Shown: positions 39,722-62,789 of the stretch, piece by piece
How positions within the stretch are numbered: the first letter of the stretch is position 1
Layout: every line of letters begins with the position of its first letter
Source: Isurus oxyrinchus
Taxonomy: Eukaryota
NCBI GenBank assembly: GCA_026770705.1
Contig: JANJGN010000052.1
Location: 1,302,001 to 1,366,000, forward strand
Length of the DNA: 64,000 nucleotides
Direction: 5' to 3'
Notes under the pieces: generated by a model
Told to the model about the DNA's origin: nothing
The model's input: only the letters and a program-made list of their open reading frames with translations
Databases searched by the model: none
Translations under genes and position numbers: made by a program

Positions 39722-39970
39722 TCAGTTTTTCTGGAACCTGATCTGTGCGTATTCCGTGTCCTCGCTCCTATGCACAGTCCTGTCACCGCCGGGCAGCTTT
39801 GAAAAGTTGATGTTGGCATAGAAAAGCTCGTCGGGTTTGTCAGGGTTCCCATGTCCAACATCGCCTCCCACTGGACCTTCAGAGAGATCCCGGGGAGCTG
39901 GGGTCTCCCCCTCACTAGTTGTGTCTCTGGTTGTGTTCCGGGGCTCAGTAATCAGCACGTTCTGTTTACC
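39722..39970 (-). CDS. Gene A last exon, with ITIM (LFYANI) and ITSM-like motif (TEYAQI)
   Basis: tttctctgtag acceptor, phase 0, 249 nt including TGA; motif order matches CD33-related Siglec tails. Confidence 0.9.
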   Translation of the reverse strand, partial: GKQNVLITEPRNTTRDTTSEGETPAPRDLSEGPVGGDVGHGNPDKPDELFYANINFSKLPGGDRTVHRSEDTEYAQIRFQKN

Positions 39971-42900
39971 CTACAGAGAAATGGAAACAGAAGACATCCT
40001 CACATCATTTACTGGCACTGATAGGGTTAAATTATTGTGCAGCCTCATTAGTGTCAGTCGTGTCTCAGTGGGTTTAAGCCTTTTTTTCACTCTCTTTCTC
40101 TGTCTCTCTTTCTCTCGCTTTCTCTCTCTCTTTATAATTTAATCTCTATCGCACTCCAACAGTGCAGCACTCCCTCAATACTGACCCTCTGACAGTGCAG
40201 CACTCCCTCAGTACTGACCCTCTGACAGTGCAGCACTCCCTCAATACTGACCCACTGACAGTGCAGCACTACCTCAGTACTGACCCTCTGACAGTGCAGC
40301 ACTCCCTCAGTACTGACCCTCTGACAGTGCAGCACTCCCTCAGTACTGACCCTCTGACAGTGCAGCACTCCCTCAGTACTGACTCTCTGACAGTGCAGCA
40401 CTCCCTCAGTACTGAACCTCTGAAAGTGCAGCACTCCCTCACTACTGACCCTCCGACAGTGCAGCACTCCCTCAGTACTGACCCTCTGACAGTGCAGCAC
40501 TCCCTCAATACTGACCCTCTGACAGTGCAGCACTCCCTCAATACTGACCCTCTGACAGTGCAGCACTCCCTCAATACTGACCCTCTGACAGTGCAGCACT
40601 CCCTCAGTACTGACCCTCTGACAGTGCAGCACTCCCTCAGTACTGACCCTCTGACAGTGCAGCACTCCCTCAGTACTGACCCTCTGACAGTGCAGCACTC
40701 CCTCAATACTGACCCTCTGACAGTGCAGCACTCCCTCAGTACTGACCCTCTGACAGTGCAGCCCTCCCTCAGCACTGACCCTCTGACAGTGCAGCACTCC
40801 CTCACTACTGACTCTCTGACAGTGCAGCACTCCCTCAGTACTGACCCTCTGACAGTGCAGCCCTCCCTCAGCACTGACCCTCTGACAGTGCAGCACTCCC
40901 TCACTACTGACTCTCTGACAGTGCAGCACTCCCTCAGTACTGACCCTCTGACAGTGCAGCACTCCCTCAGCACTGACCCTCTGACAGTGTAGCACTCCCT
41001 CACTACTGACCCTCTGACAGTGCAGCACTCCCTCAGTACTGACCCTCTAACAGTGCAGCACTCCCTCAGTACTGACCCTCCGACAGTGCAGCACTCCCTC
41101 AGTACTGACCCTCTGACAGTGCAGCACTCCCTCAGTACTGACCCTCTGACAGTGCAGAACTACCTCAATACTGACCCTCTGACAGTGCAGCACACCCTCA
41201 CTACTGACCCTCTGACAGTGCAGCACTCCCGGAATACTGACCCTCTGACAGTGCAGCACTCCCAAAATACTGACCGTCTGACAGTGCAGCACTCCCTCAC
41301 TACTGACCCTCCGACAGTGCAGCACTCCCTCAGTACTGACTCTCTGACAGTCCAGCAATCCCTCAGTACTGACCCGCTGACAGTGCAGCAGTTCCTCAGT
41401 ACTGATCATCCGACAGTGCAGCACTCCCTCAGTACTGACCCTCCGACAGTGCAGCACTCCCTCAGTAATGACACTCTGACAGTGCACAACTCCCTCAGTA
41501 CTGACCCTCCAACAGTGCAGCACTCCCTCACTACTGACCCTCCGACAGTGCAGTACTCCCTCAGTACTGACCCTCTGACAGTGCAGCACTCCCTCAGTAA
41601 TGACCATCTGACAGTCCCGCACTCCCTCAGTACTGACCCTCTGACAGTGCAGCACTCCCTCAGTGCTGACCCTCCGACAGTGCAGCACTCCCTCAGTACT
41701 GACACTCTGACATTGCAGCACTCCCTCACTACTGACCCTCTGACAGTGCAGCACTCCCTCAGTACTGACCCTCTGACAGTGCAGCACTCCCTCACTACTG
41801 ACCCTCTGACAGTGCAGCACTTCCTCAGTACTGACCCTCTGACAGTGCAGCACTCCCGCAGTACCGACCCTCCGACAGTGCAGCACTTCCTCAGTACTGA
41901 CCCTCTGACAGTGCAGCACTCCCGCAGTACCGACCCTCCGACAGTGCAGCACTCCCTCAATACTGACCCTCTGACAGTGCAGCACTCCCTCAATACTGAC
42001 CCTCTGACAGTGCAGCACTCCCTCATTACTGACCCTCTGACAGTGCAGCACTCCCTCAGTACTGACCCTCTGACAGTGCAGCACTCCCTCAGTACTGACC
42101 CTCTGACAGTGCAGCACTCCCAGAATACTGACCCTCTGACAGTGCAGCACTTCCTCACTACTGACCCTCCGACAGTGCAGCACTCCCTCAGTACTGACTC
42201 TCTGACAGTCCAGCACTCCCTCAGTACTGACCCGCTGACAGTGCAGCACTTCCTCAGTACTGATCATCCGACAGTGCAGCACTCCCTCAGTACTGACCCT
42301 CCGACAGTGCAGCACTCCCTCAGTAATGACACTCTGACAGTGCACAACTCCCTCAGTACTGACCCTCCGACAGTGCAGCACTCCCTCACTACTGACCCTC
42401 CGACAGTGCAGTACTGCCTCAGTACTGACCCACTGACAGTGCAGCACTCCCTCAGTAATGACCATCTGACAGTCCCGCACTCCCTCAGTACTGACCCTCT
42501 GACAGTGCAGCACTCCCTCAGTGCTGACCCTCCGACAGTGCAACACTCCCTCAGTACTGACGCTCTGACAGTGCAACACTCCCTCAGTACTGACCCTCCG
42601 ACAGTGCAGCACTCCCTCAGTACTGATCCTCTGACAGTGCAACACACCCTCAGTACTGACCCTCCGACAGTGCAGCACTCCCTCAGTACTGACACTCTGA
42701 CAGTGCAGCACTCCCTCAGTACTGACCCTCCGACAGTGCAGCACTCCCTCAGTACTGACACTCTGACATTGCAGCACTCCCTCAGTACTGACCCTCTGAC
42801 AGTGTAGCACTCCCTCAGTTCTGACATCAGGTGCCTTGTCATTAATGTGTTCAGGTTTCTGGTCAAAGAGCGAGTGATGGAGGGAGACAGAGGCTGGGAG

Positions 42901-45900
42901 CGAGAGACAGTGCTGACCACTGAGCCATTGCTGACTTCACAAGGAGATATCTGTGTGTAACCCGGCTGAGAATCTGGTATATGTGTTGTGTACACACTGA
43001 GGTTGAAGCTTTGGAGTGAGTGTAAACAGCTCCTGTACCTGGTGCTTCACAGAGAGTGGACTGGGGGTCAATGCAATGTCACTGGTCCCTGAAACTCTCT
43101 CCTCCATCGCTGTCTTTCTCCTGCAATAACACAATATCACACTGTGGTTATCATATAGCAGAGAGTCAGTGCAGCACAGACACAGAGCCCACTGTAACCT
43201 TACACCAACGACTGGACTGTCTCTAGTTCCAATAAGGGGTATCAGCGTGACATCACTATAATGGAAGTGTGTCATGTGATCCAATCTTAGTTTCACTTTT
43301 GCTTTGAGCAGAGCACACACTCACAGCTCTGATGCCTTCAATCTTTATCCGTATGTATAACTGTTCTCGTGCCGAGTCTTGATAAACAAACCGACAACAT
43401 TCTCACCCAAACCCTGTGAGCGATTGGTGCTTTGTTTCTTGTACAGTAAATAAGCCCAAGGTATAATATCATTATAATAACACGCCATATCTTTGACCCG
43501 CCCTCCACCCCTGCACTTCCCCCCATAGCCCTTCAAATGTTCCCCCTTCAAGTATTTATTCATTTACCCTTTTGAAAGTTCCTATTGAATCTGCTTCCAG
43601 CGCCCTTTCAGGCAGCACCTTCCAGATCACAGCAACTGATTATTATTCATCTGGATAACGGGCAATGAAAAACACTCTCTGGATCATAAGGGACAAAGTG
43701 ACCAGTTTCGGAGAGGCACCTGGCGCTTAACACAAGGGAAACAATCACCGACTTCAGGAAAGAACATTGAAGCAAATATCAATCCAGGAGTAATCGTGCA
43801 GAGTGAGGAATCTCTGGGTCTCGTGATCGTTTACCTGGATACAGGACAATGAAAGGTTCTCTCCGGATCAGAGTGGACACAGGGATCACTTACGGAGAGG
43901 GACCTGGTGCTGATCCCAAGGGAAACAATCACCGACTTAAGGAAAGAACATTGAAGCAAATGTTTATATTAAAATCAAGTTAAATCTTCAGACTTACTTT
44001 CTCACACAGATGAAGATGAAGATTCCAGCCAGGAAAACACTCAACATGATCCCAGCCGTGAACAATCCTACTGTCCATTTACTGGAGTCTCTACCTGTAA
44101 AAACAGCCATTAGTTACTGCACTACAGGTTTACAATGATGCTCCGATGTATCTCGAGAAGCGATACACTCACTCAATGTTCAAATACTCATTCTCGGGCA
44201 ATGCTGACATTTATTGTCCATCCCTAGTTTCCCCTTGAGAAGGTGGTGGGGGGTCTTCCTCCTGAACCACTGGTTTGTCCCAAACTGGGAGACCAGTTCA
44301 GAGGGCAGGTGTGAGTTAACCATGTTGGTGTCTGAGACTGGAGTCACATCCACATCGAGACATGCTTCCCTCCCTAAAGGGTATGTAGTCTCTACACATG
44401 TAACAACCAACCTCACTGAAATAATCAACTATCAGGTCATTATCACACGGTGGTTTGCGGGATCTTGCTGTGCACAAATCAGTACCTGTGTTTCCTACAT
44501 TACAAAAGTGTGCTCACTTCGATAATGCTTCATTGGCTGTTGAATGTTTAGTAATTTCTAAGCAATTTATGAATACAGGTATTGCATTTCAAAGTAATCC
44601 ATGTAACATTTATATATAATATTTATCAATTAAAGAATGAGAAGTTCAGCAATTAAAAGGGTTGTTCAGGACAGTTAGAGAGAGAAAGGTCATCAAGTAC
44701 GGAGATTGGAAACGAAGACCTGACAGCCTTGTCCTGACAACCATTGAAGGAGAAACTGAGAGCAAAAACAGAAAGGGAGAGGAAAAATTGGATGTGTGGA
44801 TAACGTGGACTGAGTGAGGATTGAAGAAAACTGGATTAAAAACAACACGATCCCAATGGCTCCACGGAGACCACGGAGACAACAAACAAACAAATGTATC
44901 TCCACACTCACATTCCACAGTGATGGTTATGAACCCCTCCACTGCTCCATGTTCATTCTCTGCCACACACTGATAGTCTCCAGTGTCCCTGGATGTAACG
45001 TGAGGAATCACCAACCACAGCTCATTGTTGGAACCTGTTCTGTTCATTGGGACATTAAGATGTCGCCACGTCAGGTTAGAAGCTGGGAAGCTCTCGACAG
45101 AGCAGATTATCACTGCAGAATTCCCCTCAATTATATTGATCGATGAAGCGTTAATCATATCAAGAGAAGTAAATGAGAGATCCTGTGGAGCATCTAAGAA
45201 CAAATCAAGTGTTTAATGTGAGCAAGCACAGTTTACAGCAAGACTCCATGCATTATCTCTCTGTATCTGATGTCTGTATGCATAGCCAGGTCCCTCCACT
45301 CCATATAACTTCCACTGTCAAATTTATAATGGGCACTGCCTATGTAAACAGTCAAACTGCAGTTACATTCTCCCACCAGTAGAGGTGCTGTCCACCTAGA
45401 ATGAAAGGAATTTGCTTTCACATCCTCAGGATGTCCCCAAGGGCTTGACAGGCAATGATTGTATTTGATCAATGGAGCACTGAGGGGTAAATATACAATT
45501 CTCTGTTCAGGAGGTTGCTCATCCAATTCAGGGACTTGTTGATCTGTAGTTTACCTTCGTTCCATCCAGAATTGGAGCTGATACCGAGACTCCAGTGCAG
45601 TGAGTGCTTGTGTGTGCATGTGGGTGTGCATTTGTGTATATGTGTTCAAATCTGAGAGAGATGTTGAATTCTGTGTACACTCACATTCCACAGTGATGGT
45701 TATGAACCCCTCCACTGCTCCATGTTCATTCTCTGCCACACACTGATAGTCTCCAGTGTCCCTGGATGTAACGTGAGGAATCACCAACCACAGCTCATTG
45801 TTGGAACTTGTTCTGTTCATTTGGACATTAAGATGTCGCCACGTCAGGTTAGAAGCTGGGAAGCTCTCGACAGAGCAGATTATCACTGCAGAATTCCCCT

Positions 45901-46684
45901 CAATTATATTGATCGATGAAACGTTAATCATATCCAGAGAAGTAATTAAGAGATTCCGTGGTGTGTCTAAAAATAAATAAAGATTTTAATGTGAGCAAGC
46001 ATAGTGCGCAGCAAGACTCCATGCATCATCTCTCTGTATCTGATGTTGGAATGCCTTTCCAGGTACCTTCCCTCATGAAAAATTACTGTCACATTTATAA
46101 TAGGCATTTCCTATGTAAACTGTCACACTGCAGTTGCATTCTCCCACCAGTAGAGTTGCTGTCCATCTAGAATGAAAGAAACATCGTTTAACACTCTCAA
46201 GATGCCCCCAAGGGATTGAAAGCCATTGAATTGTATTTGATTGATGGAGCACTGAGGGGTAAATCTACCATTCTCTGTTCAGGAGGTTGCTCATCCAATT
46301 CAGGGTCTTGTTGATCTGGAGTTTACCTTCCTTCAACACAGAATCGAAGCTGATACCGAGACTCCAGTGCGGCCCTGAGAGAGAAGAGGGACCTCACACG
46401 TGTTTATGTGTACGTGTTTGTGTTTGTACATATGTGAGTATGTTTGTGTGAGTAAATGCATGCATGTGTCTGTGTGTGCATGTATGTGTTTGCGCATATG
46501 TGAGTGTGTCTTTGTGTATATTTCTGTGCATGAGTGAATGTGTGTACATGTGTATGTGTATGTGTGTGCATGTGTGAGTGTGTGTGTGTGAGTTGAGTGT
46601 GTGTATGTTTCTGTGTATATTTTTGCACGCGTATGTTTGTGTGTGTAAATGTGCATGTATGTGTCTACACGAGTGCATGTTGTG

Positions 46685-46730
<46 letters not shown>

Positions 46731-47751
46731 AGTGATGTTGAAGTTTGCATTAACTCACATTCCACAGTGATGGTTATGAATCCCTCCACTGCTCCATGTT
46801 CATTCTCTGCCACACACTGATAGTGTCCAGTGGCCCTGGATGTAACGTGAGGAATCACCAACCACAGCTCATTGTTGGAACTTGTTCTGTTCATTGGGAC
46901 ATTAAGATGTCGCCACGTCAGGTTAGAAGCTGGGAAGCTCTCGACAGAGCAGATTATCACTGCAGAATTCCCCTCAATTATATTGATCGATGAAGCGTTA
47001 ATCATACCAAGAGAAGTAATTGAGAGATTCCGTGGTGCATCTAAAAACATAGAAAGATTTTAACGTGAGCAAATATAGTGCACAGCAAGACTCCATGCAT
47101 CATCTCTCTGTATCTGATGTCTGAATGCATTTCCAGGTAACTTCCCTCACGATAAGGTCTTATGGCACATTTATAATTGACACTGCCTATGTAAACTGTC
47201 ACACTGCAGTTGCATTCTCCCACCAGTAGAGGTGTTGTCCATCTAGAATGAAAGAAGCTTGCTTTCACATCCTCAGGATTTCGCAAAGGTTTTGAGAGGC
47301 AATGAATTGCATTTGATCGATGGAGTACTGAGGTCTATATCTACATTTCTCTGTTCAGGAGGTTGCTCATCCAATTCAGGGTCTTATTGATTTGGAGTTT
47401 ACCTTCTTTCAACACAGAATCGGAGATGACACCGAGACTCCAGTGCAGCACTGAGAGAGGACACGGAACTCACATGTGTGTATGTGTTTGTTTGTGTTTG
47501 TGTTTCTGCACAAGTGTGTGTGCTTGTGTGTGTATGCACACATGTATCTGTGTGTGCGCATGCACGCATGTCTGTGTGTCTATGTCTGTCCATGAGTGAG
47601 AGTACGTGTATGTGTGTGTCTTTGTGTGGGCATGAATATGTGTGTGTGTTTGAGATGGGTGTGTATTTTCCTGTGTATGTGTTTGTACGTGTATGACTGT
47701 CTGTGTATACTTATGCATGTGTATGCTTACACATGTGTGTGCGTGTGTGTA

Positions 47752-47812
<61 letters not shown>

Positions 47813-50800
47813 TGTTGAAGTTTGCAGTAACTCACGTTCCACAGTGATGGTTATGAACCCCTCCACTGCTCCATGTTCATTCTCTGCCACACACTGATAG
47901 TCTCCAGTGTCCCTGGATGTAACGTGAGGAATCACCAACCACAGCTCATTGTTGGAACTTGTTCTGTTCATTGGGACATTAAGATGTCGCCACGTCAGGT
48001 TAGAAGCTGGGAAGCTCTCGACAGAGCAGATTATCACTGCAGAATTCCCCTCAATTATATTGATCCATGAAGTGTTAATCATATCAAGAGAAGTAATTGA
48101 TAGGTTCCGTGGTGCATCTAAATACAAATAAAGGTTTCATTGTGAGCAAACACAGTGCACAGCAAGACTCCATGATACATCTCTCTCTATTTGGTGTCTA
48201 TGTGCATTTCCAGGGTTCTTTCCTGTTTTAAGTTCCTATGTCAACTTTTATAATGGTCACTGCCGGCGTTTTTCTTTTTGCACATTCATGGGAAGTGGCT
48301 GTATCTATCTAGACCAGCATTTATTACCCATCCCTAATTGCCCTTGAGGAAGTGGTGGTGAGTTTTTCACCCCACAGAATTCCCAGCCTCTGACCGGCTC
48401 CTGTAGCCACAGTATTTATGGCCGGTCCAGTTAGTTGTTTGGTTAACATCCCCCAGGATGTTGATCGTGGGGGATTCAGTGATGGGAAAGTGATTGAATA
48501 TCAAGGAGAGATGGTTAGATTCTCTCTTGTTGGAGATGATCACTGCCTGGTGCTTGTGTGGTGTGAACATTACTTGTCATTTCTCAGCCCAAGCTGAGTG
48601 TTGTTGAGCTCTTGCTGCGTGTGGATATGTAAACTGTCACGCTGTAATTACAGAGATAAAAACAAAAAAACTGCGGATGCTGGAAATCCAAAACAAAAAC
48701 AGAATTACCTGGAAAAACTCAGCAGGTCTGGCAGCATCGGCGGAGAAGAAAAGAGTTGACGTTTCGAGTCTTCATGACCCTTCGACAGAACTTGAGTTCG
48801 AGTCCAAGAAAGAGTTGAAATATAAGCTGGTTTAAGGTGTGTGTGTGGGGGGGCGGAGAGATAGAGAGAGAGAGAGGGGTGGAGTGGGGGTGTGGTTGTA
48901 GGGACAAACAAGCAGTGATAGAAGCAGATCATCAAAAGATGTCAACAACAATAGAACAAAAGAACACATAGGTGTTAAAGTTAAAGTTGGTGATATTATC
49001 TAAACAAATGTGCTAATTAAGAATGGATGGTAGGGCACTCAAAGTATAGCTCTAGTGGGGGTGGGGAGAGCATAAAAGATTTTAAGATATTTAAAAATAA
49101 TGGAAATAGGTGGGAAAAGAAAAATCTATACAATTTATTGGAAAAAAAAGGCAGGGGGAAACAGAAAGGGGGTGGGGATGGGGGAGGGAGCTCACGACCT
49201 AAAGTTGTTGAATTCAGTATTCAGTCCGGAAGGCTGTAAAGTGCCTAGTCGGAAGATGAGGTGCTGTTCCTCCAGTTTGCGTTGGGCTTCACTGGAACAA
49301 TGCAGCAAGCCAAGGACAGACATGTGGGCATGAGAGCAGGGTGGAGTGTTAAAATGACAAGCGACAGGGAGGTCTGGGTCATTCTTGCGGACAGACCGCA
49401 GGTGTTCTGCAAAGCGGTCGCCCAGTTTACGTTTGGTCTCTCCAATGTAGGGGAGACCACATTGGGAGCAACGAATGCAGTAGACTAAGTTGGGGGAAAT
49501 GCAAGTGAAATGCTGCTTCACTTGAAAGGAGTGTTTGGGCCCTTGGACGGTGAGGAGAGAGGAAGTGAAGGGGCAGGTGTTACATCTTTTGCGTGGGCAT
49601 GGGGTGGTGCCATAGGAGGGGGTTGAGGAGTAGGGGGTGATGGAGGAGTGGACCAGGGTGTCCCGGAGGGAGCGATCCCTACGGAATGCCGACAGCGGCG
49701 GGGGGGTGAAGGGAAGATGTGTTTGGTGGTGGCATCATGCTGGAGTTGGCGGAAATGGCGCAGGATGATCCTTTGAATGCGGAGGCTGGTGGGGTGATAA
49801 GTGAGGACAAGGGGGACCCTATCATGTTTCTGGGAGGGAGGAGAAGGCGTGAGGGCGGATGCGCGGGAGATGGGCCGGACACGGTTGAGGGCCCTGTCAA
49901 CGACCGTGGGTGGAAAACCTCGGTTAAGGAAGAAGGAGGACATGTCAGTGGAACTGTTTTTGAAGGTGGCATCATCGGAACAGATGCAACAGAGGCGAAG
50001 GAACCCTCATCTCCTCAACCCCCTCCTATGGCACCACCCCATGCCCACGTAAAAGATGCAACACCTGCCCCTTCAGTTCCTCTCTCCTCACCGTCCAAGG
50101 GCCCAAACACTCCTTTCAAGTGACGCAGCATTTCACTTGCATTTCCCCCAACTTAGTCTACTGCATTCGTTGCTCCCAATGTGGTCTCCTCTACATTGGA
50201 GAGACCAAACGCTGACTGGGCGACCGCTTTGCAGAACACCTGCGGTCTGTCCGCAAGAATGACCCAAACCTCCCTGTCGCTTGCCATTTTAACACTCCAC
50301 CCTGCTCTCTTGCCCACATGTCTGTCCTTGGCTTGCTGCATTGTTCCAGTGAAGCCCAACGCAAACTGGAGGAACAACACCTCATCTTCCTTCTAGGCAC
50401 TTTACAGCCTTCCAGACTGAATATTGAGTTCAACAACTTTAGGTCGTGAGCTCCCTCCCCCATCCCCACCCCCTTTCTGTTACCCCCCTCCTTTTTTTTC
50501 CAATAAATTATATAGATTTTTCTTTTCCCACCTGTTTCCATTATCTTTAAATATCTTAAAATCTTTTATGCTCTCCCCACCCCCACTAGATCTGTACCTT
50601 GAGTGCCCTAACATCCATTCTTAATTAGAACATTCGTTTAGATAATATCACCAACTTCAACACCTCTGTGTTCTTTTGTTCTATTTTTGTTCTATATGTG
50701 TTCTTTTGTTCTACTGTTGTTGACATCTTTTGATGATTTGCTTCTATCACTGCTTGTTTGTCCCTACAACCACACCAACCCCCTCCACTTCTCTCTCTCT

Positions 50801-52471
50801 CTCTCTCTCCACCACCCCCCCCACCCCCCACACCTTAAACCAGCTTATATTTCAACTCTTTCTTGGACTCGAACTCAAGTTCTGTTGAAGGGTCATGAGG
50901 ACTCGAAACGTCAACTCTTTTCTTCTCCGCCGATGCTGCCAGACCTGGTGAGTTTTTCCAGGTAATTCTGTTTTTGTTTTACGCTGTAATTACTGCCTTC
51001 CACCAGAGGAGACACTGTTGTGCTAGAAGAAAAGAAAATGCCTTTCACATCATCAGGATGTTCACAGGGATTTGACAGTGGAGGAATTGCTTTAGAATAA
51101 TGGGGTATTGAGTGATAAACCTACAATTCTCTGTGCAGGGGGCTGCTCGTCCAATACAGGGACTTGTTCAGCTGATGTCGTCAGTGTTTCAGAGCAGAAT
51201 CTGGAGCAACACTCCAGTGCAGCACAGGGAGAACAGACAACACACACATGTCTGTGTGTGTGTGTGAGCAAGCACACGTGTGATTCTGTATGAATGTTTC
51301 TGTGTGTGAGCATGCAGGCGTGCACACCTGTGCACATGTGGGATTCAACATGAATGCTTGTTTGTGTGCGCACTTGTCTNNNNNNNNNNNNNNNNNNNNN
51401 NNNNNNNNNNNNNNNNNNNNNNNNNNNNNNNNNNNNNNNNNNNNNNNNNNNNNNNNNNNNNNNNNNNNNNNNNNNNNNNNNNNNNNNNNNNNNNNNNNNN
51501 NNNNNNNNTCACGTTCCACAGTGATGGTTATGAATCCCTCCACTGCTCCATGTTCATTCTCTGCCACACACTGATAGTCTCCAGTGTCCCTGGATGTAAC
51601 GTGAGGAATCACCAACCACAGCTCATTGTTGGAACTTGTTCTGTTCACTGGGACATTAAGATGTCGCCACATCAGGTTAGAAGCTGGGAAGCTCTCGACA
51701 GAGCACATTATCACTGCAGAATTCTCCTCAATTATATTGATCGATGAAGCATTAATCATATCAAGAGAAGTAATTGAGACATTCTGTGGTCCATCTAAAA
51801 ACATATAAAGATTTTAATGTGAGCAAGCACAGTGCACAGCAATACTCCATGCATCATGTCTCTGTATCTGATGTCTGAATGCATTTCCAGGTACCTTCTC
51901 TCAGGATAAGAACTTATTTCACATTTACAATGGTCACTGCCTATGTAAACTGTCACACTGCAGTTACATTCTCCCACCAGTGGAGGTGTCCATCTAGAAT
52001 GCAGGAAACTCCCTTTCAGATCCTCAGGATGTCCCCAAGGGCTTCAAAGGCAATGAATTGTATTTGATCAATGGAGCACTGAGGGGTAAATCTACAATTC
52101 ACTGTTAAGGAGGTTTCTCCATCCAATTCAGGGTCTTGATGATCTGGAGTTTACCTTCCTTCAACACAGAATCGGAGCTGATACTGAGACTCCAGTGCAA
52201 CACTGAGAGAGGAGAGGGTACCCACACGTTTTTGTGTGTGTATGTGTGTGTTTACTTGTGTGTGTGTATGTTTCTNNNNNNNNNNNNNNNNNNNNNNNNN
52301 NNNNNNNNNNNNNNNNNNNNNNNNNNNNNNNNNNNNNNNNNNNNNNNNNNNNNNNNNNNNNNNNNNNNNNNNNNNNNNNNNNNNNNNNNNNNNNNNNNNN
52401 NNNNNNNNNNNNNNNNNNNNNNNNNNNNNNNNNNNNNNNNNNNNNNNNNNTTTCTGCATGTCTGTATGTAT

Positions 52472-52540
<69 letters not shown>

Positions 52541-54667
52541 TGAGTGATGTTTGTAGTTTGCAGTAACTCACATTCCACAGTGATGGTTATGAACCCCTCC
52601 ACTGCTCCATGTTCATTCTCTGCCACACACTGATAGTCTCCAGTGTCCCTGGATGTAACGTGAGGAATCACCAACCACAGCTCATTGTTGGAACTTGTTC
52701 TGTTCATTGGGACATTAAGATGTCGCCACGTCAGGTTAGAAGCTGGGAAGCTCTCGACAGAGCAGATTATCACTGCAGAATTCCCCTCAATTATGTTGAT
52801 CGATGAAGCGTTAATCATATCAAGAGAAGTAATTGAGACATTCTGTGGTGGATCTAAAAACATATAAAGATTTTAATGTGAGCAAGCACAGTGCACAGCA
52901 AGACTCCATGCATCATGTCTCTGTATCTGATGCCTGAATGCGTTTCCAGGTACCTTCCCTCAGGATAAGAACTTATTTCACATTTACAACGGGCACTGCC
53001 TATGTAAACTGTCACACTGCAGTTACATTCTCCCACCAGTGGAGGTGTCCATCTAGAATGCAGGAAACTCCCTTTCAGATCCTCAGGATGTCCCCAAGGG
53101 CTTCAAAGGCAATGAATTGTATTTGACCAATGGAGCACTGAGGGGTAAATCTACAATTCACTGCTCAGGAGGTTGCTCCATCCAGTTCAGGGTCTTGATA
53201 ATTTGGAGTTTACCTTTCATCAACAAAGAATAGGAGCTGATACCGAGGCTCCAGTGCAGCACTGAGAGAGGAGAGGGAACCCACACGTTTTTGTGTGTGA
53301 ATGTGTGTGTTGGCTTGTGTGTGTGTATGTTTCTGCACAATAAGGATCTGTGTGTGTGCACGCATGCATGTGTGTTTGTGTGTGTGTGCGCACGTGTGTC
53401 TGTCTGTGCGTGTGTGTGTGTGTGTGAGTGTGTGTGTGTGTCTGAGTGTGTGCGTGTGTGTGTGAGNNNNNNNNNNNNNNNNNNNNNNNNNNNNNNNNNN
53501 NNNNNNNNNNNNNNNNNNNNNNNNNNNNNNNNNNNNNNNNNNNNNNNNNNNNNNNNNNNNNNNNNNNNNNNNNNNNNNNNNNNNNNNNNNNNNNNNNNNN
53601 NNNNNNNNNNNNNNNNNNAACTCACGTTCCACAGTGATGGTTATGAACCCCTCCACTGCTCCATGTTCATTCTCTGCCACACACTGATAGTCTCCAGTGT
53701 CCCTGGATGTAACGTGAGGAATCACCAACCACAGCTCATTGTTGGAACTTGTTCTGTTCATTGGGACATTAAGATGTCGCCACGTCAGGTTAGAAGCTGG
53801 GAAGCTCTCGACAGAGCAGATTATCACTGCAGAATTCCCCTCAATTATATTGATCGCTGAAGCATTAATCATATCAAGAGAAGTAATTGAGACATTCTGT
53901 GGTCCATCTAAAAACATATAAAGATTTTAATGTGAGCAAGCACAGTGCACAGCAATACTCCATGCATCATGTCTCTGTATCTGATGTCTGAATGCATTTC
54001 CAGGTACATTCCCTCAGGATAAGAACTGATTTCACATTTACAATGGTCACTGCCTATGTAAACTGTCACACTGCAGTTACATTCTCCCACCAGTGGAGGT
54101 GTCCATCTAGAATGCAGGAAGCTCCCTTTCAGATCCTCAGGATGTCCCCAAGGGCTTCAAAGGCAATGAATTGTATTTGACCAATGGAGCACTGAGGGGT
54201 AAAACTACAATTCTCTGTTCAAGAGGTTTCTGCATTCAATTCAGTGTCTTGATGATCTGGAGTTTACCTTCCTTCAACACAGAATCAGAGCTGATACTGA
54301 GACTCCAGTGCAGCACTGAGAGAGGAGAGGGAACCCACATGTTTTTGTGTGTGTATGTGTGTGTTGGCTTGTGTGTGTGTATGTTTCTGTAAAATAAGGA
54401 TCTGTGTGTGNNNNNNNNNNNNNNNNNNNNNNNNNNNNNNNNNNNNNNNNNNNNNNNNNNNNNNNNNNNNNNNNNNNNNNNNNNNNNNNNNNNNNNNNNN
54501 NNNNNNNNNNNNNNNNNNNNNNNNNNNNNNNNNNNNNNNNNNNNNNNNNNNNNNNNNNNNNNNNNNNNTCTGCATGTGTGTATGTATATGTGTGTGTGTG
54601 TATGTGTGTGTGTGTGTGAGTTGAGATTGTGTGTTTCTGCATGTGTGTATGTATATGTGTGTGTGTA

Positions 54668-54734
<67 letters not shown>

Positions 54735-57700
54735 CTGAGTGATGTTTGAAGTTTGCAGTAACTCACATTCCACAGTGATGGTTATGAACCCCTCCACTGC
54801 TCCATGTTCATTCTCTGCCACACACTGATAGTCTCCAGTGTCCCTGGATGTAACGTGAGGAATCACCAACCACAGTTCATTGTTGGAACTTGTTCTGTTC
54901 ATTGGGACATTAAGATGTCGCCACGTCAGGTTAGAAGCTGGGAAGCTCTCGACAGAGCAGATTATCACTGCAGAATTCCCCTCAATTATATTGATCGATG
55001 ATGCATTAATCATATCAAGAGAAGTAATTGAGAGATTCTGTGGTGCATCTAAAAACAAATAAACATCAATTAACTTACACTGACTGTGAAGCACTTTGAA
55101 AGACACTTAGAATGTGAAAGGTGTGATATCAATATAGGTTCTTTCACCACAAAGCCCATAATCCAGGCAGACACCTCAGTTCAGTACTGAGGGAGTGCTG
55201 CATTGTCGGAGGGTTAGTACTGAGGGAGTGCTGCACTGTCGAAGGGTCAGTACTGAGGTAGTGCTGCACTGTCAGTGGATCAGTACTGAGGGAGTGTTGC
55301 ACTGTCAGAGGTTCAGTACTGAGGGAGTGCTGCACTGACGAAGCGTCAGTACTGAGGGAGTGCCGCACTGTCGAAGGGTCAGTACTAAGGGAGTGCTGCA
55401 CTGTCAGTGGATCAGTACTGAGGGAGTGTTGCACTGTCAGAGGTTCAGTACTGAGAGACTGCTGCAGTGTCAGAGGTGAATTTGTATCAGTTAAAGACGA
55501 TTGATTTGTAGCTAAACACAATGAATTTGTGGGATCTTGCAGTGTACTATGTGGAGCTTTCTAGCTAATGTAGATGGAAGGGAGTCGGTACTTACCTTGC
55601 ACAGTTAGTACGAGGGTCCGCTCTGATGAAACAGATGGATATCTCACTCTGCAGCTGAGAGTGTGTCTGTGGTGTTTGAGTGATGGGATCAGGGTCAGAA
55701 CAGAAGTATAGGTCAGAGAGACACCATGCTGAGTTACAGTGTTTGAGACTGATCCAGGTACGTCAGTGGAAGTGTCCCAGGTTAAGACAGGTGCTGCTGT
55801 TCCATTGCACGTTGTGTTGAAGGTGCAGCTTACATCCACACGCTTTCCTGCAATAATTTCAGCAGGGAATATCGTGGGTTTATCTGTGAAAACTAACAGA
55901 CAGAGAATGGATCCTTTTAGAGAAATATAACGTGAAGCATCAGTTCAAATAGAAACCACAGTCCCACAAGAGAAAGCATTTTTACGAGGATGATATCAGA
56001 ACTGAGATGTTTTAACGATCCTGATAGACTGTTAGACACGATTAGAGAGATCGATGGGAGTGGAATACATTTAATCATTGATATTAAAGTGAGTATTAAA
56101 GGTTGCTTTAGGACTGAACTGGAAGTGATCACCAGGTTATTGAGAATCAGACAGTGTGTTATAATAAGCTGTGTTTTGTGTTAATATGTAAACGTCACAG
56201 TTTGTGTTATTTCCCATTGAGTGTTGGCTGTGAATTGTTGAGTAATTATAACACAGCACTTACCAGAAACGTGAAGCTGGGTTACAGGGTAATAGTTATA
56301 GCCCGGACCATTGCCAAATTCTATTCTGAAAAAGTAAGGTCCTTCATCTTCCCGTCTGATGTTGTTTATAATCAGGGAACAGTCGCCATCTTTCAGGTCT
56401 CCAGACAGCCGGGTCCGATTGTGGAACCGTGGTAACTCGTGACTGTGATCCTTGGAGTGAAAGGCAATGGGAGCCCAGGGAATCTGTTCCTCATTATTAA
56501 ACCAGACTCCACCTCGCGGTTGGTTTTCCAGACACGATGGATAACTGTAATGACATGGAATCTGTACACACGAACCTTCCTGCGCTGTCACCTCTCGTGG
56601 AGTGTCACCTTTCCACTCTTGTGAGGGTTCAGCTGGGGAGAGAAATCTCAATATTTAACTCTGGATGGTTTGTGGATCTACTGAACCCGATATTTACAGA
56701 TGTTGCTGAATTGGGGGGATGGTCAATACTGAGGAGGACTGCAACAAATTACAGGAAGATATACATTCTGATGAAGAATCATACGGACTCGAAACGTTAA
56801 CTCTGTCTTCCTCTCCACAGATACTGTCAGACCTGCTGAGATTTTCCTGCAATTTTTGTTTTAGTTACAGATTTCCAGCATCTGGAGAATTTTGCTTTTA
56901 CATTACAGAAAGATATTAATAAACTTGCAGAATGGGCAGGTCATTGACAAATGAGTTTCTGCGTTAATAAATGTGAGGCATTACATTTTGTTCAAGAAAA
57001 TGAGGAGCTTGAATCTTACCTCGAAAATAAGAATCTAATTGGGGTAGAGGAACAACGTGATCTGGGGCAGAAATACAGGAATCAGTAAACGTGGGGACAC
57101 AGGTTAACAAGGGAATTAAACATACAAACTAAACACTCGAGATTATTTCTCCAGGGATTGAATTGAAAAGTAGAGAAGTGATGTGAAACTTGTCCTGATC
57201 CTCGGTCTGACTGCACCTGGAGTCACGTGTGCAGTTCTGGCCCCCATATTGTAAAAAGGATATGGAGACACTGGAGAGGGTGGTAAAAAGCTTCACAAGG
57301 ATGATCTCCGCAATGTGAGGCTTTACCTATCAGGAGAGGATGTACAGGCTGGGTCTCTGTTCTCTTGAACAGAGAAGGTTGAAGGGTGACCTCATTTGAT
57401 CTTTGAAGTAATGAAAGGTTTTGATCGAGTAGACATGGAGAGAGTGTTTCCACTCCTCACAATGAACAAAATTAGAAGCTGACAATATAAGATCCTCACT
57501 AATAAATCCAATGGGGAATTCAGGAGAAACTTCTTTACCCAGAGAGTGGGGAGAATGTGTACTTCAAGAATCACTTCATTGGCTGTGAATCAGTTTAGGA
57601 TCGTCCTGAGGTGGTAAAAGGCGCTATGGAAATGTGAGACTTACTTTTGTATTTTGAAAGCAGGTTTTCAAGGATGAGATGGGAACTGAGAGGTAACAAC

Positions 57701-60700
57701 AATCAGCAGCAACTTTCCTATTTTCAAACTTGGTGGGGAATGTGTCACTGAGCTGAATACACTTTCACTCCCAGTCCCTTGACTTGACAACACCGGGGTG
57801 TGGGTGATGGAGCAGTCCACAGCTCATGGAACCCTGGCTCATCGTTCTCTCAGAGATCTGGGTCACTGATCCCATTGCTCTCTGTGGGAGCTTCCTGTGT
57901 ACAAACTCACTGCCACGTTAGACAGTGACTATACTTCAAGAATTTCTTCATTGTCTGTGAAATGATTTGGTACGTGCTGAGGTGATGAAAGACGCTATAG
58001 GAATGCAAGTCTTTACTTTGTCGATTTGTCAGACTTTTAAACAGGATTAGAGAGACTGATGGGAGTGGATAGCCTGATAGCATTGATGGACACAGTCAAT
58101 ACATTTAATCATTGATATTAAAGTGATTATTAGAGGTTGCTTTAAGACTGAACTGGAAGCAATCACCAGGTTATTGAGAATCAGACAGTGTGTAAAAATA
58201 AGCTGTGTTTTGTGTTAATATGTAAACGTCACAGTTTGTGTTATTTCCCATTGAGTGTTGGATGTGAATTGTTGAGTAATTATAACACAGCACTTACCAG
58301 AAACTTGAAGCTGGGTTACAGGGTAATAGTTATGGCTCGGACCATTGTCAAATTCTATTCTGAAAAAATAAGGTCCTGCATCTTCCCGTCTGATGTTGTT
58401 TATAATCAGTGAACAGTCGCCATCTTTCAGGTCTCCAGACAGCCGGGTCCGATGGCGGAACCGTGGTAACTCGTGACTGTGATCCTTGGAGTGAAAGGCA
58501 ATGGGAGCCCAGGGAATCTGTTTCTCATTATTAAACCAGACTCCACCTCGCGGTTGGTTTTCCAAATGTGATGGATAACTGTAATGACATGGAATCTGTA
58601 CACACGAACTTTCATGAGCTGTCACCTCTCGTGGAATGTCACCTTTCCACTCTTGTGACAGTCCAACTGGGGAGAGAAATATCAATATTTAACTCTGGAT
58701 CTTTTTTCGATCCACTAGACTTGATATCCACCCCCTCCATCACTAGGGCACAGTGGCTGCAGTGTGGACCATCTACAGGACACACAAGGAACTCCCCAAG
58801 GTTTCACAATGGATGGAAGAGAATCCTGGACACAGGAGTGGACAAGTTCATTCTACATTGGCTCATGGTCCTCAGGACCCTGTTTAGTTTTTTCAAATTA
58901 TTCATTCATAGCATTTATTACCCATCCCATGTCTATCAGAGGTATTTAAGATTCAACCAAATTGCTGTGGGTTTGGAGTGACATGTCGGCCAGACTGGGT
59001 AAGGGTGTCAGATCTCCTTCCCTATACCAGGCTTTTTAATCCCATTCATCTGCTGTGATGGGATTTACACCCAGGGCCCCAGAGCATCACCCTGGGCCCC
59101 TGGAATACTAGCCCAGTGACAATACCTCTCTGCTACCGCTTCCCCTTAGTGAAGCCAGTCTTCCACCCAACACAGTGTCTACAAGACCCACCAATTGAGA
59201 TCCATTCAGTGCTGATTTACAAGACAGGACAATGGATTAGGAGCCCTCAGAACTCCCCCCATTATCACCGTCATGAATCACTAATTAGCCTAACATTCCT
59301 GTCTGCTCTTCAACACAGCTGATTGGCTAATCTGATTCAATCTGATTGGTGTTCATTCCCTCTTCAATGTTTAAGGAATCACCAATCACTCGGCCTCTAG
59401 TTATTCTCTTGCCCACAAGAGGGAACATTCTCTATCTACCCAGTCAATCAAAACCTTTTATCTAAACCTAATGGTGCTTGAGTATATAGTCGGGAATCCA
59501 GGGCAATGGAGCCTCAGGAGAAGAGATGGAAACCCTGTGAGGTGGAACGTCACTGAGGCCATCCGAGTTGAAGCGACTTTTGGAGAGAATTCCAAGGCAA
59601 GATCTTCGAAGTTGAAGATTGGAATCCCTCATGAGAGAAACAGAGTTTCAGTGAGATTGGTTGACTGACAGTGTTCACTGATGTCCGGGTGGGTTGTTGT
59701 GAAATCCATGGGCTCTATCTTGGTCGCGTTTACGATTTAATGAGTAGTACGGCTGTGAGACCACAGTTTGCCTGTTAATTCACATGAGCTCATATTAATC
59801 CAGAATGTTAGGGTATAAGGTGGATATTGTGAATTATTTTATCTTTCTGACCTGGTGCAGTAAAGTTTATTTTTGTTTGTTTAAAAGCCATGGAAACTCT
59901 GTTTCTCTCATGAGGGATTCCAATCTTCAACTTCGTACATCCTGCCTTGGAATTCTCTCCAAAAGTCGCTTCAACTCGGATGGCCTCAGTGACGTTCCAC
60001 TCACAGGAATCTTGTAGCTTTATTCTCTTCGCAGGCGTCTTAAATCTCAAACCTCGTCTACTTGAAACAAAATATTATTGGTTCCTAACTGTAAATTACG
60101 AAAAAAAATTGGTTTCTGTTCCTCCATCAGCAACTCTTCAGAATCCTGCTGAAGTCACGGATATTTCAGAAGGACAGGGAACAAGAGGTTTCTGGTATCA
60201 GCGTTTTGTGTGGGGCCCAGTTCAGTTTGAACAAATAAACAACACCATCTTTGAAAGTCATGAACCCACCGCAGCGGCACCTCCGACACATGCAGAGCTC
60301 AGGCGAGAGGCGCTTTGTTAGTGTGTTTCACAGGGTCTGCTGGAGTAGGGTCAGTGCTGAGAGGGTCTGCTCAAGGATCATAACAACCTGCACTTGCACC
60401 TTCCAAGTAATAAGATTTTGTAAATGTATTCATTCATGGGATGTGGGCGTCGCTGCCAAGGCCAGCATTTGCTGCCCATCTCTAATGTCCCGTGACATAA
60501 TCTCTGTAGCAGAGTAGAGACAATCATGATCACTCAGGATATTTGACATCTATCCACATGAGCAGCTTTGCCTTCCTTCTCTCTTTCAGTTATCTTACTC
60601 CCTTATTGAAGTTTCTAGCATGGTGAGAACTGGATGGTTTGCTCGGACATTTCAGAGGAACCACGTTGCTATGAGTCTGGAGTCACATGTAGGCCAGACC

Positions 60701-62236
60701 AGATATAGACGGCAGATTTCCTTCCCTAAAGGCCATTAGTGAACCAGATGGGTGTGTATGACAATCGATGATAGTTTCATGGTCTCCATTACTGAGACTA
60801 ACTCCCATTAGTGTAAACAGAGTGAACAGTTTTCCATTGATCCCACCTTTCCCGTTCTCTCCGGTATTTTACACACTATTGCTCGAAGTTTTGATTCTGC
60901 CAAGGACCCCTTGGAAAATTATGGACCCCAGTTAGACAACCAATGGAATAAGAAATCTCTTTGGATCCTCATTGTCTGAAGAATCTCTTTGTATCCTCAT
61001 TGTCTAAGGGATTATTTCTGATCCAAACCCCATATTGTTGTATTGTTGATTCCGATGCAGCATTGTAGACTGACTTGTCCCCAAGCTCAGCACTGACCCT
61101 ACTCCAGCAGACACTGTGAAACACACTAACAAAGCGCCTCTAGCCTGAGCTCTGCATGTGTCGGAGGTGCCGCTGTGGTGGGTTCATGACTTTCAAAGAT
61201 GCTGTTGTCATTTTTTTTGTTCAAACTGAACTGGGCCCCACATGAAATGCTGATACCAGAAACTTCTTGTTCCCTGTCCTTCTGAAACATCTGTGATTCA
61301 GCAGGATTCTGAAGATTTGCTGACAAGGGTCTTAAATTGTCTGATTGTTGAATGATACAACACAGGAGGAGCTTGTTTGACCCATCGTGCATGTGCTGAC
61401 TCTTTCCCAATTCCTCTCCAGCACCTTTCGCACATCCCTGCAAATTTCCCTTCAAGTATTTAGCCAGTTCCCCTTCTGAAAGTTCCTGTTGAATCTGCTT
61501 CCACCGCCCTTTCAGGCAGTGAGTCAATGGTCTCTCTCTGAGCTGCAATGTGCCCAGATTCTGTGAAATTTAAACTCTGCAGCAGATCAGAGACACTCAT
61601 GATAACTCAGAATATTTGACAGTTTTACACACAGACAGCTTTGCCTCCCTTCTCTCTTTCAGTTATCTTGCTCCCTTATTGAAGTATCTAGCAAGGTGAG
61701 AATGGACAGGAAGTGTGACACTGAACAGCCTGTCTATTCTAGGAGCTGCTGTGCTGTCTTCATGGGAAGTTTTGAATAATGGCAGCAAAGGATACAAATT
61801 TCAGGTTATTGCTATCGGATAACTCTCATTAGGATAGGCTTCACCCACCAGGTTTTATCCCTGCTTCTCTATTCAATCCATCAATCCCCATTGCTCACTG
61901 ACCAACGTCTGACAGCACCTGAATTTTGAGATTCTGCTCTCGCTGCTACAAACCTGCCTATCCCTGTACACTCCTCCAGCCCCTACAACCCTCCAAGGCC
62001 TCTGGTCTCCTCCAATTCTGCTGTCAGACAGGGAGTCAGTGTATATCAGTGAGCACAGGGGTGATGGATGAATGGGACATAGTGTGAGTTTGTACACTGG
62101 CTCACTGCTAAATCAGTTCCCAATTAGAGGTCAATAAGAATGTTCTTTTACAAAGACTATTAACCATAAATCTGTCCGAGCTGATGATGATCTTACCTTG
62201 GAGAAGTGACAGGAGGAAGTAAGATTTCCCGATCAT
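39722..62236 (-). CDS. Gene A: inhibitory Siglec-like receptor (leader-V-V-C2-8xC2-TM-ITIM/ITSM tail), 15 coding exons, predicted 1252 aa
   Basis: Exons 62197-62236, 58298-58666, 56264-56632, 55596-55892, eight 282-nt exons, 43998-44094, 43039-43120 and 39722-39970. All have GT-AG boundaries and compatible phases; the sum is 3759 nt = 1253 codons including stop. Siglec V-set motifs and CD33-like tail motifs are present. Confidence 0.88.
40159..42818. repeat. 33-bp satellite, about 80 copies (cagtgcagcactccctcagtactgaccctctga), in the last intron of gene A
   Basis: Clear 33-bp periodicity; it generates the spurious [11 protein letters not shown] / [11 protein letters not shown] ORFs. Confidence 0.97.
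43039..43120 (-). CDS. Gene A cytoplasmic exon ([27 protein letters not shown])
   Basis: ttgcag acceptor and gtacag donor, 82 nt, phase 2-0, bridging the TM exon and the last exon exactly. Confidence 0.82.
43998..44094 (-). CDS. Gene A transmembrane exon ([33 protein letters not shown])
   Basis: 97 nt, phase 1-2, uncharged TM. Confidence 0.9.
44912..45193 (-). CDS. Gene A repeated C2 Ig exon 8 (membrane-proximal)
   Basis: 282 nt, AG/GT boundaries, phase 1-1, open. Confidence 0.9.
45685..45966 (-). CDS. Gene A repeated C2 Ig exon 7
   Basis: 282 nt, AG/GT boundaries, phase 1-1, open. Confidence 0.9.
46759..47040 (-). CDS. Gene A repeated C2 Ig exon 6
   Basis: 282 nt, open; carries the ATGHYQC variant of DTGDYQC. 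Confidence 0.9.
47836..48117 (-). CDS. Gene A repeated C2 Ig exon 5
   Basis: 282 nt, AG/GT boundaries, phase 1-1, open. Confidence 0.9.
48652..50980. mobile_element. Penelope-like element with inverted arms and a 13-bp target-site duplication
   Basis: [39 protein letters not shown] on the minus strand (49192-49521) with an inverted copy on plus; acgctgtaattac at 48639-48651 and 50981-50993. Confidence 0.88.
51513..51794 (-). CDS. Gene A repeated C2 Ig exon 4
   Basis: 282 nt, open; donor visible next to an N run. Confidence 0.88.
52572..52853 (-). CDS. Gene A repeated C2 Ig exon 3
   Basis: 282 nt, AG/GT boundaries, phase 1-1, open. Confidence 0.9.
53626..53907 (-). CDS. Gene A repeated C2 Ig exon 2
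   Basis: 282 nt, AG/GT boundaries, phase 1-1, open. Confidence 0.9.
54767..55048 (-). CDS. Gene A repeated C2 Ig exon 1 ([43 protein letters not shown]...[14 protein letters not shown])
   Basis: 282 nt; C..W..DxGxYxC Ig signature. Confidence 0.9.
55180..55475. repeat. 33-bp satellite, about 9 copies
   Basis: Read directly. Confidence 0.9.
55596..55892 (-). CDS. Gene A Siglec domain-2-type C2 exon
   Basis: 297 nt, phase 1-1 (an alternative in-frame acceptor lies 9 nt downstream). Confidence 0.9.
56264..56632 (-). CDS. Gene A second V-set exon (starts AEPSQEW; PYFFRIEF)
   Basis: 369 nt, phase 1-1, open. Confidence 0.92.
56690..57560 (+). mobile_element. CR1-type LINE fragment interrupted by a ~140-bp Penelope-type solo pLTR (56763-56902)
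   Basis: [11 protein letters not shown] motif; insert flanked by ttacag(g/a)aagatat at 56749-56762 and 56903-56916. Confidence 0.7.
58298..58666 (-). CDS. Gene A first V-set exon (PYFFRIEF)
   Basis: 369 nt, phase 1-1, open. Confidence 0.92.
62197..62236 (-). CDS. Gene A leader exon, coding part [13 protein letters not shown]
   Basis: 40 nt, gtaaga donor; putative non-coding exons upstream (62310-62398; donor next to 62669). Confidence 0.87.
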
Positions 62237-62789
62237 TGTCTGCTCCCAGATATTTCCTCAGCATCTAACTCTGAAGTTCTGAAAGAGAAAGGAGTTAATG
62301 AGACTTCACCTCTTGTCCGAATGCTCTCGAGAGATCAGAACTGCTTTTAGACAATATCTTCACAGACTAATTTGATTCTCTGTGGGATGATAGGTGTTCT
62401 GCAGAGAGTTACAAGGCTTTCAGAAAGAAAAACAATGAAGGACTTGCATTTCTATAGCACCTTTCACCACCTCAGGATGCCCCAAGCTCATGTCCCTTGA
62501 GCTAGAAAGATGTTCTGTACAACAGACTTGAGTCTCACACCCAGATCTCAATAATCAGTAGAAATCTTTCAAAGGCATCGATCATTGGAATCTGTCTTTA
62601 TAAAGTCACAACATCAACAAAGGACGGTGTTGGTCGTGGAAGTGAATTCCAATCATTCTGTTACTTACCCAGGACCTGTCCGACTGCTTGCCTGGGGAGG
62701 AACTGCCCACACGCTCTGCTTGGGCTGAATGACCTCTTCCTGTGCTGCTCCCTCTGTGTATTTAATTAGAAAGAGCTGATGTGTCTCAG

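Follow-up and report, generated by a model that had tools for sequence, protein, structure and literature searches.

The 64,000-nt window analysed here (positions 1,302,001 to 1,366,000 of contig JANJGN010000052.1, assembly GCA_026770705.1) comes from the shark Isurus oxyrinchus and contains, on its minus strand, a Siglec-type gene with a stalk built from one repeated immunoglobulin (Ig) exon. The joined model consists of a leader, two V-set domains, one constant domain, eight repeats, a transmembrane (TM) segment and two cytoplasmic exons. It is open throughout, encodes 1,249 amino acids and carries 34 N-glycosylation sequons. The stalk exons are R1 (54767-55048), R2 (53626-53907), R3 (52572-52853), R4 (51513-51794), R5 (47836-48117), R6 (46759-47040), R7 (45685-45966) and R8 (44912-45193). 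Each is 282 nt long, open, of phase 1-1 and bounded by AG and GT, and all eight acceptors and donors look canonical. Pairwise, they differ by 6 to 16 nt, or 2 to 10 amino acids over 93; thus, the eight near-identical exons described in an earlier, sequence-only reading of this DNA are present as described. So are the three to four sequons of the listed kinds in each exon (4, 4, 4, 3, 4, 4, 3 and 3 from R1 to R8, 29 in total). Because 282 is a multiple of three and the phase is 1-1, gain, loss or skipping of a copy is frame-safe. Pfam scores the repeat domain as Ig_3/I-set rather than C2-set, and a PDB match aligns it with residues 318 to 385 of MAG.

The distances from R1 to R8 are 1141, 1054, 1059, 3677, 1077, 1074 and 773 bp, so that the proposed spacing of 1054-1141 bp holds for five of the seven gaps and fails for R4-R5 and R7-R8. 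The R4-R5 intron reaches 3.7 kb because 2.3 kb of sequence has been inserted into it (48652-50980, assigned to neither strand), with a target-site duplication of 13 bp. This insertion is made up of a retroelement fragment present twice, in inverted orientation; the fragment matches GIY-YIG weakly (E 9e-4, below the Pfam cut-off), and we take it to be Penelope-like. The insertion marks a clade of sister genes. Runs of N lie, as had been noted, in the four introns spanning R1 to R5.

The remaining exons are also on the minus strand. A leader exon encoding the signal peptide (62197-62236) gives the same N-terminus as annotated shark proteins. It is followed by the V-set exons V1 (58298-58666) and V2 (56264-56632), assigned by sequence comparison and Pfam and, for V2, by a PDB match, and by the first constant (C2-set) exon, C1 (55596-55883), assigned by Pfam. 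Downstream of the stalk are a TM exon of a type designated T1 (43998-44094), whose span has no charged residue, a first cytoplasmic exon (43039-43120), which is in frame in the joined model, and the last coding exon of that model (39722-39970), which carries LFYANI, a more distal TEYAQI and the stop codon. A further cytoplasmic exon of 40 nt, at 43795-43834, was considered and rejected, since its omission leaves the model in frame and few genes have it.

The V domains find their best PDB matches in Siglec-5, -8 and -10, CD33 and MAG (best E 5e-17), and the top 17 rows are all Siglecs, MAG, CD33 or sialoadhesin. Both V1 and V2 score above the cut-off for Pfam V-set and Ig_CD22. Both have the essential F-strand Arg, with YFFR aligned to the YFFR of Siglec-5. 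Siglecs have a distinctive cysteine pattern, in which Cys residues lie in the B and E strands, none lies in the F strand, and an extra Cys faces domain 2. The Cys positions of the shark V domains match the Siglec-5 alignment, and C1 has, as judged from its sequence, an extra Cys. LFYANI presumably fits the consensus of an ITIM (immunoreceptor tyrosine-based inhibitory motif), and we take TEYAQI to resemble an immunoreceptor tyrosine-based switch motif. In the databases, its nearest protein relatives come from white shark and basking shark, with up to 94% identity in V. By its predicted V-set domains, Arg, Cys pattern, C2-type domains, TM segment and tyrosine motifs, the gene is a member of the Siglec family, in agreement with the proposal that the stalk belongs to an ITIM-bearing Siglec.

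Splicing of the repeat exon was examined in four probable-RNA runs from three studies and two organisms. These runs, whose status as RNA is a guess, consist of short contigs, which were compared with R1; runs with small word shares were set aside. In 4/4 runs the contigs cover R1, with almost no coverage left in the flanking intron. A joint between a repeat end and a repeat start is present in 4/4 runs, representing all 3 studies. Loose ends also lead from C1 to a repeat (runs X1 and X5), from a repeat to T1 (X1) and from a repeat to T2, a second type of TM exon (X5). Repeat-to-repeat splicing therefore occurs in the family, which is a family-level result rather than one for this gene. Thus, of the expectation that the exons are included in mRNA, the part concerning repeat-to-repeat joints stands for the family, while no transcript of the window gene itself was seen. 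Searched with a degenerate pattern for two repeats joined by splicing, the genome gives 0 matches. RNA-templated conversion through retrocopies finds no support, as far as one pattern can show. Splicing might also treat the repeats as alternative cassettes, so that variable subsets of exons give several stalk lengths per gene. All of the exons are symmetric and interchangeable, and the NCBI isoforms of a basking-shark relative (P0038 and P0039) differ by one repeat, whereas the canonical appearance of all eight acceptors and donors speaks against it. We regard such a cassette set as rather unlikely; it is compatible with the explanation preferred below.

A search with the insertion junction gave 40 scored matches, 14 of them non-self and full length, and the 13 at 96-99% were taken as sisters. 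All 13 have the order leader-V-V-C-repeats-T1, none contains an N, and their heads are near-identical across the clade. Their stalks hold 7, 8, 9 or 10 near-full repeats, with 4-6 before the insertion and 3-4 after it. The suggestion that copy number varies is thus borne out at the level of sister genes. In three sisters the layout is 4+4, as in the window, and the R2-R4 introns match those of the window position by position at 0.2-1.5% divergence. Because the sisters are free of N and three of them have the same 4+4 layout, the N runs are not what the array rests on. These results bear on the idea that the array is an assembly artefact. Sister introns that differ by as little as 0.2-1% and a cluster spread over many separate scaffolds speak for it. 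Against it, all eight units of the window are mutually distinct in both exon and intron, N-free sisters repeat the layout, the junctions are spliced and other species have such arrays. An artefact could make the number of genes too high, yet it could not give rise to the array, and as an explanation of the array it is very improbable.

The introns also record how the array was built. Those of R2-R4 are 4-6% apart, whereas those of R6-R8 are about 14% apart and have their nearest relatives in other genes. A two-unit block duplication had been proposed from markers in R2 and R4, and both do have GPQNVS and a C at the last base, although R5 also ends in C. Such a duplication is plausible for R1-R2 to R3-R4. 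The upstream introns of R2 and R4 are the closest pair, with 18/480 differences as compared with 24/480 and 28/480. Of two sisters examined for their donor flanks, one, free of N, pairs R1 with R3 and R2 with R4; in the other, R3 does not pair with R1. The intron distances thus indicate that the unit types are old, that the duplication of R1-R2 to R3-R4 is intermediate in age, and that whole-gene copying is the youngest event.

Arrays of this kind are found in other sharks and rays. Among 108 relatives, all from automatic gene models, some have many repeats: 10 in a model from Heptranchias, 10 in Hypanus, 8 in Scyliorhinus canicula, 7 in S. torazame and 5 in Carcharodon. A tree was built from 96 domains, namely the eight of the window and those of 30 chosen proteins. 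In it, all of the Heptranchias copies (13/13) fall into a single clade, 21 batoid copies make up a second, and the window copies intermingle with those of white shark and basking shark. The repeat domain is 59-69% identical to that of stingray and sevengill, yet 92-97% identical within those species. The annotated elasmobranch proteins belong to the same family and have the same architecture, some of them with 7-10 repeats (P0018, P0052, P0055 and P0084). Their names, which include "sialoadhesin-like", "hemicentin-like", "CD22-like" and "Siglec-10/12/13", are names only and in several cases misleading, and no account that describes the family as such was found.

The sequence-only reading took the array for a recent elongation of one gene, that is, a single Siglec lengthened by local tandem duplication and converging on sialoadhesin. 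The 4-6% distances among the R2-R4 introns fit a two-unit duplication, and R2-R4 group in the tree (96/81). However, the distances and affinities of the R6-R8 introns, the existence of at least 13 sisters and the arrays of 7-10 copies in the models of four other species all contradict a local origin for the whole array. Even the R1-R2/R3-R4 block (4-6%) is older than the copying of whole genes (0.2-1.5%). As an account of the whole array, local duplication is refuted; it survives for R2-R4 only, and we consider it improbable as the explanation of the stalk. What the comparisons suggest is that the stalk exon is an old, churning module rather than a single recent elongation.

The near-identity of the exons has a different source. 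Across 48 units (1,128 pairs), the silent divergence of the core, codons 21-93, is 0.019-0.024 whether the introns differ by 0.029 or by 0.144, while the divergence of codons 1-20 tracks the intron. A comparison of pairs in the 9/11 genes that passed extraction gives the same picture. Pairs from the same position (108) differ by 0.012 in the intron and 0.008 in the core; pairs from different positions (216) differ by 0.142 in the intron and just 0.012 in the core. The introns are not hypermutable, since same-position introns differ by only 0.012. Diversity has its minimum in the middle of the exon and increases in the direction of either end. In a Mantel test, core distances do not follow intron distances (r 0.02, p 0.37), whereas those of the two intron halves follow each other (r 0.35, p 0.001). 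With a ratio of nonsynonymous to synonymous change (pN/pS) near 0.7, selection on the protein cannot explain uniform silent sites. The simplest account would be conversion or crossing-over within the core. The repeats are alike within a lineage and their silent sites are homogenised relative to the flanks, a sequence pattern of concerted evolution from which whale shark and zebra shark are excepted. The exons look young, then, because their cores are homogenised.

Alternatively, the core could be kept uniform by purifying selection on the DNA or RNA itself, acting through splicing enhancers or RNA structure. Conservation is indeed higher inside the exon and lower at its edges, and contigs of a second organism agree with the core at no less than 99%. 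Yet the domain has drifted between lineages while staying uniform within them, and some 50 constrained silent sites per exon would be unusual. We think this explanation has only a small chance of being correct, slightly better than that of local duplication.

The stalk exon is not confined to this clade of genes. Exact patterns of 26-29 nt, which undercount (for example, 16/20 T1 exons were recovered in a surveyed region), find 1,007 copies of the repeat exon genome-wide, with none for the reversed control, together with 568 V exons, at least 185 T1 exons and at least 101 T2 exons. The copies lie mostly on a dozen or more scaffolds. One scaffold, C52 (4.17 Mb), alone has 57 T1 and 32 T2 exons and is filled with Siglec exons end to end. 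A surveyed stretch of C52, 1.264 Mb long, contains 81 repeats that are near-full and 31 that are partial, along with 65 V, 20 T1 and 10 T2 exons; 74/81 near-full repeats have an intact frame and both splice sites. The 21 units that run from leader to TM in this region contain 0, 1, 2, 3, 7, 8, 9 or 11 repeats. In 16 of the 21, which span 0-11 repeats and 1-3 V domains, all checked exons are open, the check having left aside partial exons and unmodelled exon types. The V exons vary mainly in three loop regions and have a mosaic look. The T2 genes were at first candidates for a tail-less class, which was rejected: they have tail exons of their own with three YxN motifs, distinct from the T1 tail. 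The last two of these motifs are presumably spaced like an immunoreceptor tyrosine-based activation motif, and we take the last also to fit an ITIM.

Several loci in the cluster depart from the usual gene plan. At C52:952263-962806 and 2134020-2144560, a MAG-like head, about 28% identical to the window V and devoid of the F-strand Arg, is followed by two repeat exons (~97% identity) and then a T2 TM exon, so the stalk exon is common to distant heads. At C52:1861984-1891863, seven V exons follow one another in tandem, most of them with a period of 2.3 kb, and the unit has no TM hit; the basking-shark model P0001 also has seven V domains. In 6/21 complete units in the 1.264 Mb of C52, the outer V lacks the essential Arg and the inner V has it, and one such gene lies partly inside the window, with its V at 8302-8668. 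An extra Cys in the BC loop of V2 is present in 13/13 listed copies (sisters and window) and in 0/13 of V1, which fits a putative V1-V2 disulfide and a true tandem use of the V domains.

Other observations concern the stalk, the tail and the flanking exons. At C52:1176639-1176731, 1428363-1428455 and 1529342-1529434, the repeat exon is shortened in frame to 93 nt with its splice sites intact; it would encode a 31-residue linker in place of an Ig domain. The window also contains a truncated neighbour (19843-28272) whose terminal piece is a repeat exon's 3' half, lacking an acceptor, and the same half exon ends many units of the cluster. At C52:1142298-1165407 and 1501427-1518164, T1 genes are followed by two or three tandem two-exon tail cassettes with variant tyrosine motifs, possibly alternative tails. 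In the window gene, the last intron holds a 33-bp minisatellite of about 81 copies (40159-42825), whose length, judged from exon spacing, appears to vary among sisters. Upstream of the leader, a probable 5' untranslated exon at 62669-62753 (minus strand), identified by tblastn and with splice sites seen, has the sequence of the first cytoplasmic exon of the T2 tail type. By tblastn, this sequence occurs roughly 520 nt upstream of the leader in most cases and also downstream of T2 TM exons; apparently one exon serves in both roles. Single T2 and V matches outside the cluster occur on large scaffolds (C34:15134624 and C25:36073492).

Together, these results make it likely that the array is the stalk of an ITIM-bearing Siglec from a multi-megabase cluster that reuses one 282-nt exon 0-11 times per gene, the exon being homogenised and changed in number by ectopic recombination, and that it would place the heads about 30 nm further out. 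Unequal crossing-over and short gene conversion through the core would change stalk length while keeping the units interchangeable. All eight exons would be included in the mRNA of the window gene. An Ig domain contributes about 4 nm of length, and the N-glycosylated rod of eight domains would add about 30 nm and lift the two Arg-bearing V domains beyond the cell's own glycan coat. There the V domains may bind sialic acid, as their sequence suggests, and upon engagement the ITIM would damp activation, presumably through SHP-1/2 signalling.

A number of observations weigh against this explanation. One defective repeat is found in 9/13 sisters; of the eight defective repeats examined, four have lost the acceptor, which gives an in-frame skip, but two have stops and two have frameshifts. 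The pN/pS of the repeat, about 0.6-0.7, is a weak sign of protein selection. Whale-shark and zebra-shark copies pair by position in the tree, which speaks against homogenisation there, and the copies of catshark reach only 84-87% identity. The Mantel test has low power because the core varies little. None of the runs yielded a transcript of the window gene, and their contigs come from other individuals or species. Finally, false or haplotype duplicates in the assembly may inflate the gene counts, up to about twofold.

The defective repeats and the 31 partial fragments mean that much of the array may be neutral churn, and this is the main rival. Stalk length would then be a by-product of a frame-safe exon lying beside TG microsatellites in a recombination-rich cluster, with no selection on height. 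The pN/pS and the broken copies favour it, as does the fact that length differs among sisters with near-identical heads. Against it are the high proportion of intact near-full copies (which homogenisation itself could maintain), the recurrence of long arrays in sharks and rays, and the finding that most long-stalk genes surveyed are open (7, 7, 8, 9 and 11 repeats). With so many broken copies and so weak a pN/pS, we give neutral churn a serious chance, though well short of even. More speculative, and a shade less probable, is a broader form of the preferred reading. In it, sharks and rays would have a mix-and-match repertoire of hundreds of Siglec genes, with one universal stalk exon as a recombination hub that reshuffles heads (1-7 V domains with mosaic loops, some of them Arg-less), height (0-11 repeats) and tails. 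Height would be under selection and would decide whether a receptor reads the sugars of its own cell or those of other cells and microbes.

Several known systems share part of this organization. Sialoadhesin has one V and 16 divergent C2 domains and no ITIM, and its likeness to the shark gene, which has two V domains, C1 plus eight near-identical repeats and an ITIM tail, is limited to the long stalk. The human set comprises 15 functional Siglecs, whose C2 domains number 1-16, and the role of C2-type domains is to hold the V domain at a distance from the membrane (PMC13324755). As described there, CD33-related Siglecs and sialoadhesin resemble the shark gene in having an N-terminal V-set domain with the Arg, C2-type domains, a TM segment and ITIM-type motifs (PMC13324755). 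The shark family differs from these Siglecs in its hundreds of gene copies, its two V domains and its single homogenised stalk exon of variable number. Siglecs 5/14 and 11/16 are linked, highly similar receptors with different tails that have undergone duplication and gene conversion (PMC13358205, PMC13324755). In these primate pairs, conversion unifies the ligand-binding ends, whereas in the shark the stalk exon is the most uniform part and the V loops are variable.

Large clusters of paired Ig receptors with a repeated domain are already known, as the XFL family of Xenopus demonstrates. It has at least 75 paired Ig receptor genes with combinatorial architectures, in which D3 is repeated up to 7 times, and the chicken CHIRs exceed 100 genes (PMC2413239, in part). 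The XFL family is FcR-like and has no Siglec V domain, and in the text available from that source the terms "gene conversion" and "homogenization" give 0 hits and no exon-core homogenisation is reported (PMC2413239). In the mammalian KRTAP1 genes, gene conversion in short tracts makes the coding regions evolve in concert, and their flanks diverge normally (bioRxiv 10.1101/282418). The units there are whole small genes; here the unit is a single internal exon, homogenised across positions and genes and variable in number. Siglecs are mentioned only in passing in the available parts of two further papers (PMC8455134 and PMC13262535). The literature searched, outside which subscription papers mostly fell, yielded no paper describing an expansion of Siglecs in sharks or a stalk array. 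Nor did a Siglec family as large as this, built on one homogenised, length-variable stalk exon common to sharks and rays, appear there.

For genome analysis, the array is a reminder that near-identical repeat exons need not signal recent duplication and that automatic annotation can hide a family under names such as hemicentin-like. For the Siglecs, this would be the largest repertoire found described, with hundreds of gene copies set against the 15 functional human genes, and it sits in the oldest living lineage with adaptive immunity. A role for stalk length in cis versus trans recognition of sialic acid has long been assumed. The sister genes, with 7-10 units and near-identical heads and tails, and their neighbours, with 0-11, make up a natural series for stalk length in such recognition, in which near-identical heads would be carried to different distances from the cell surface.

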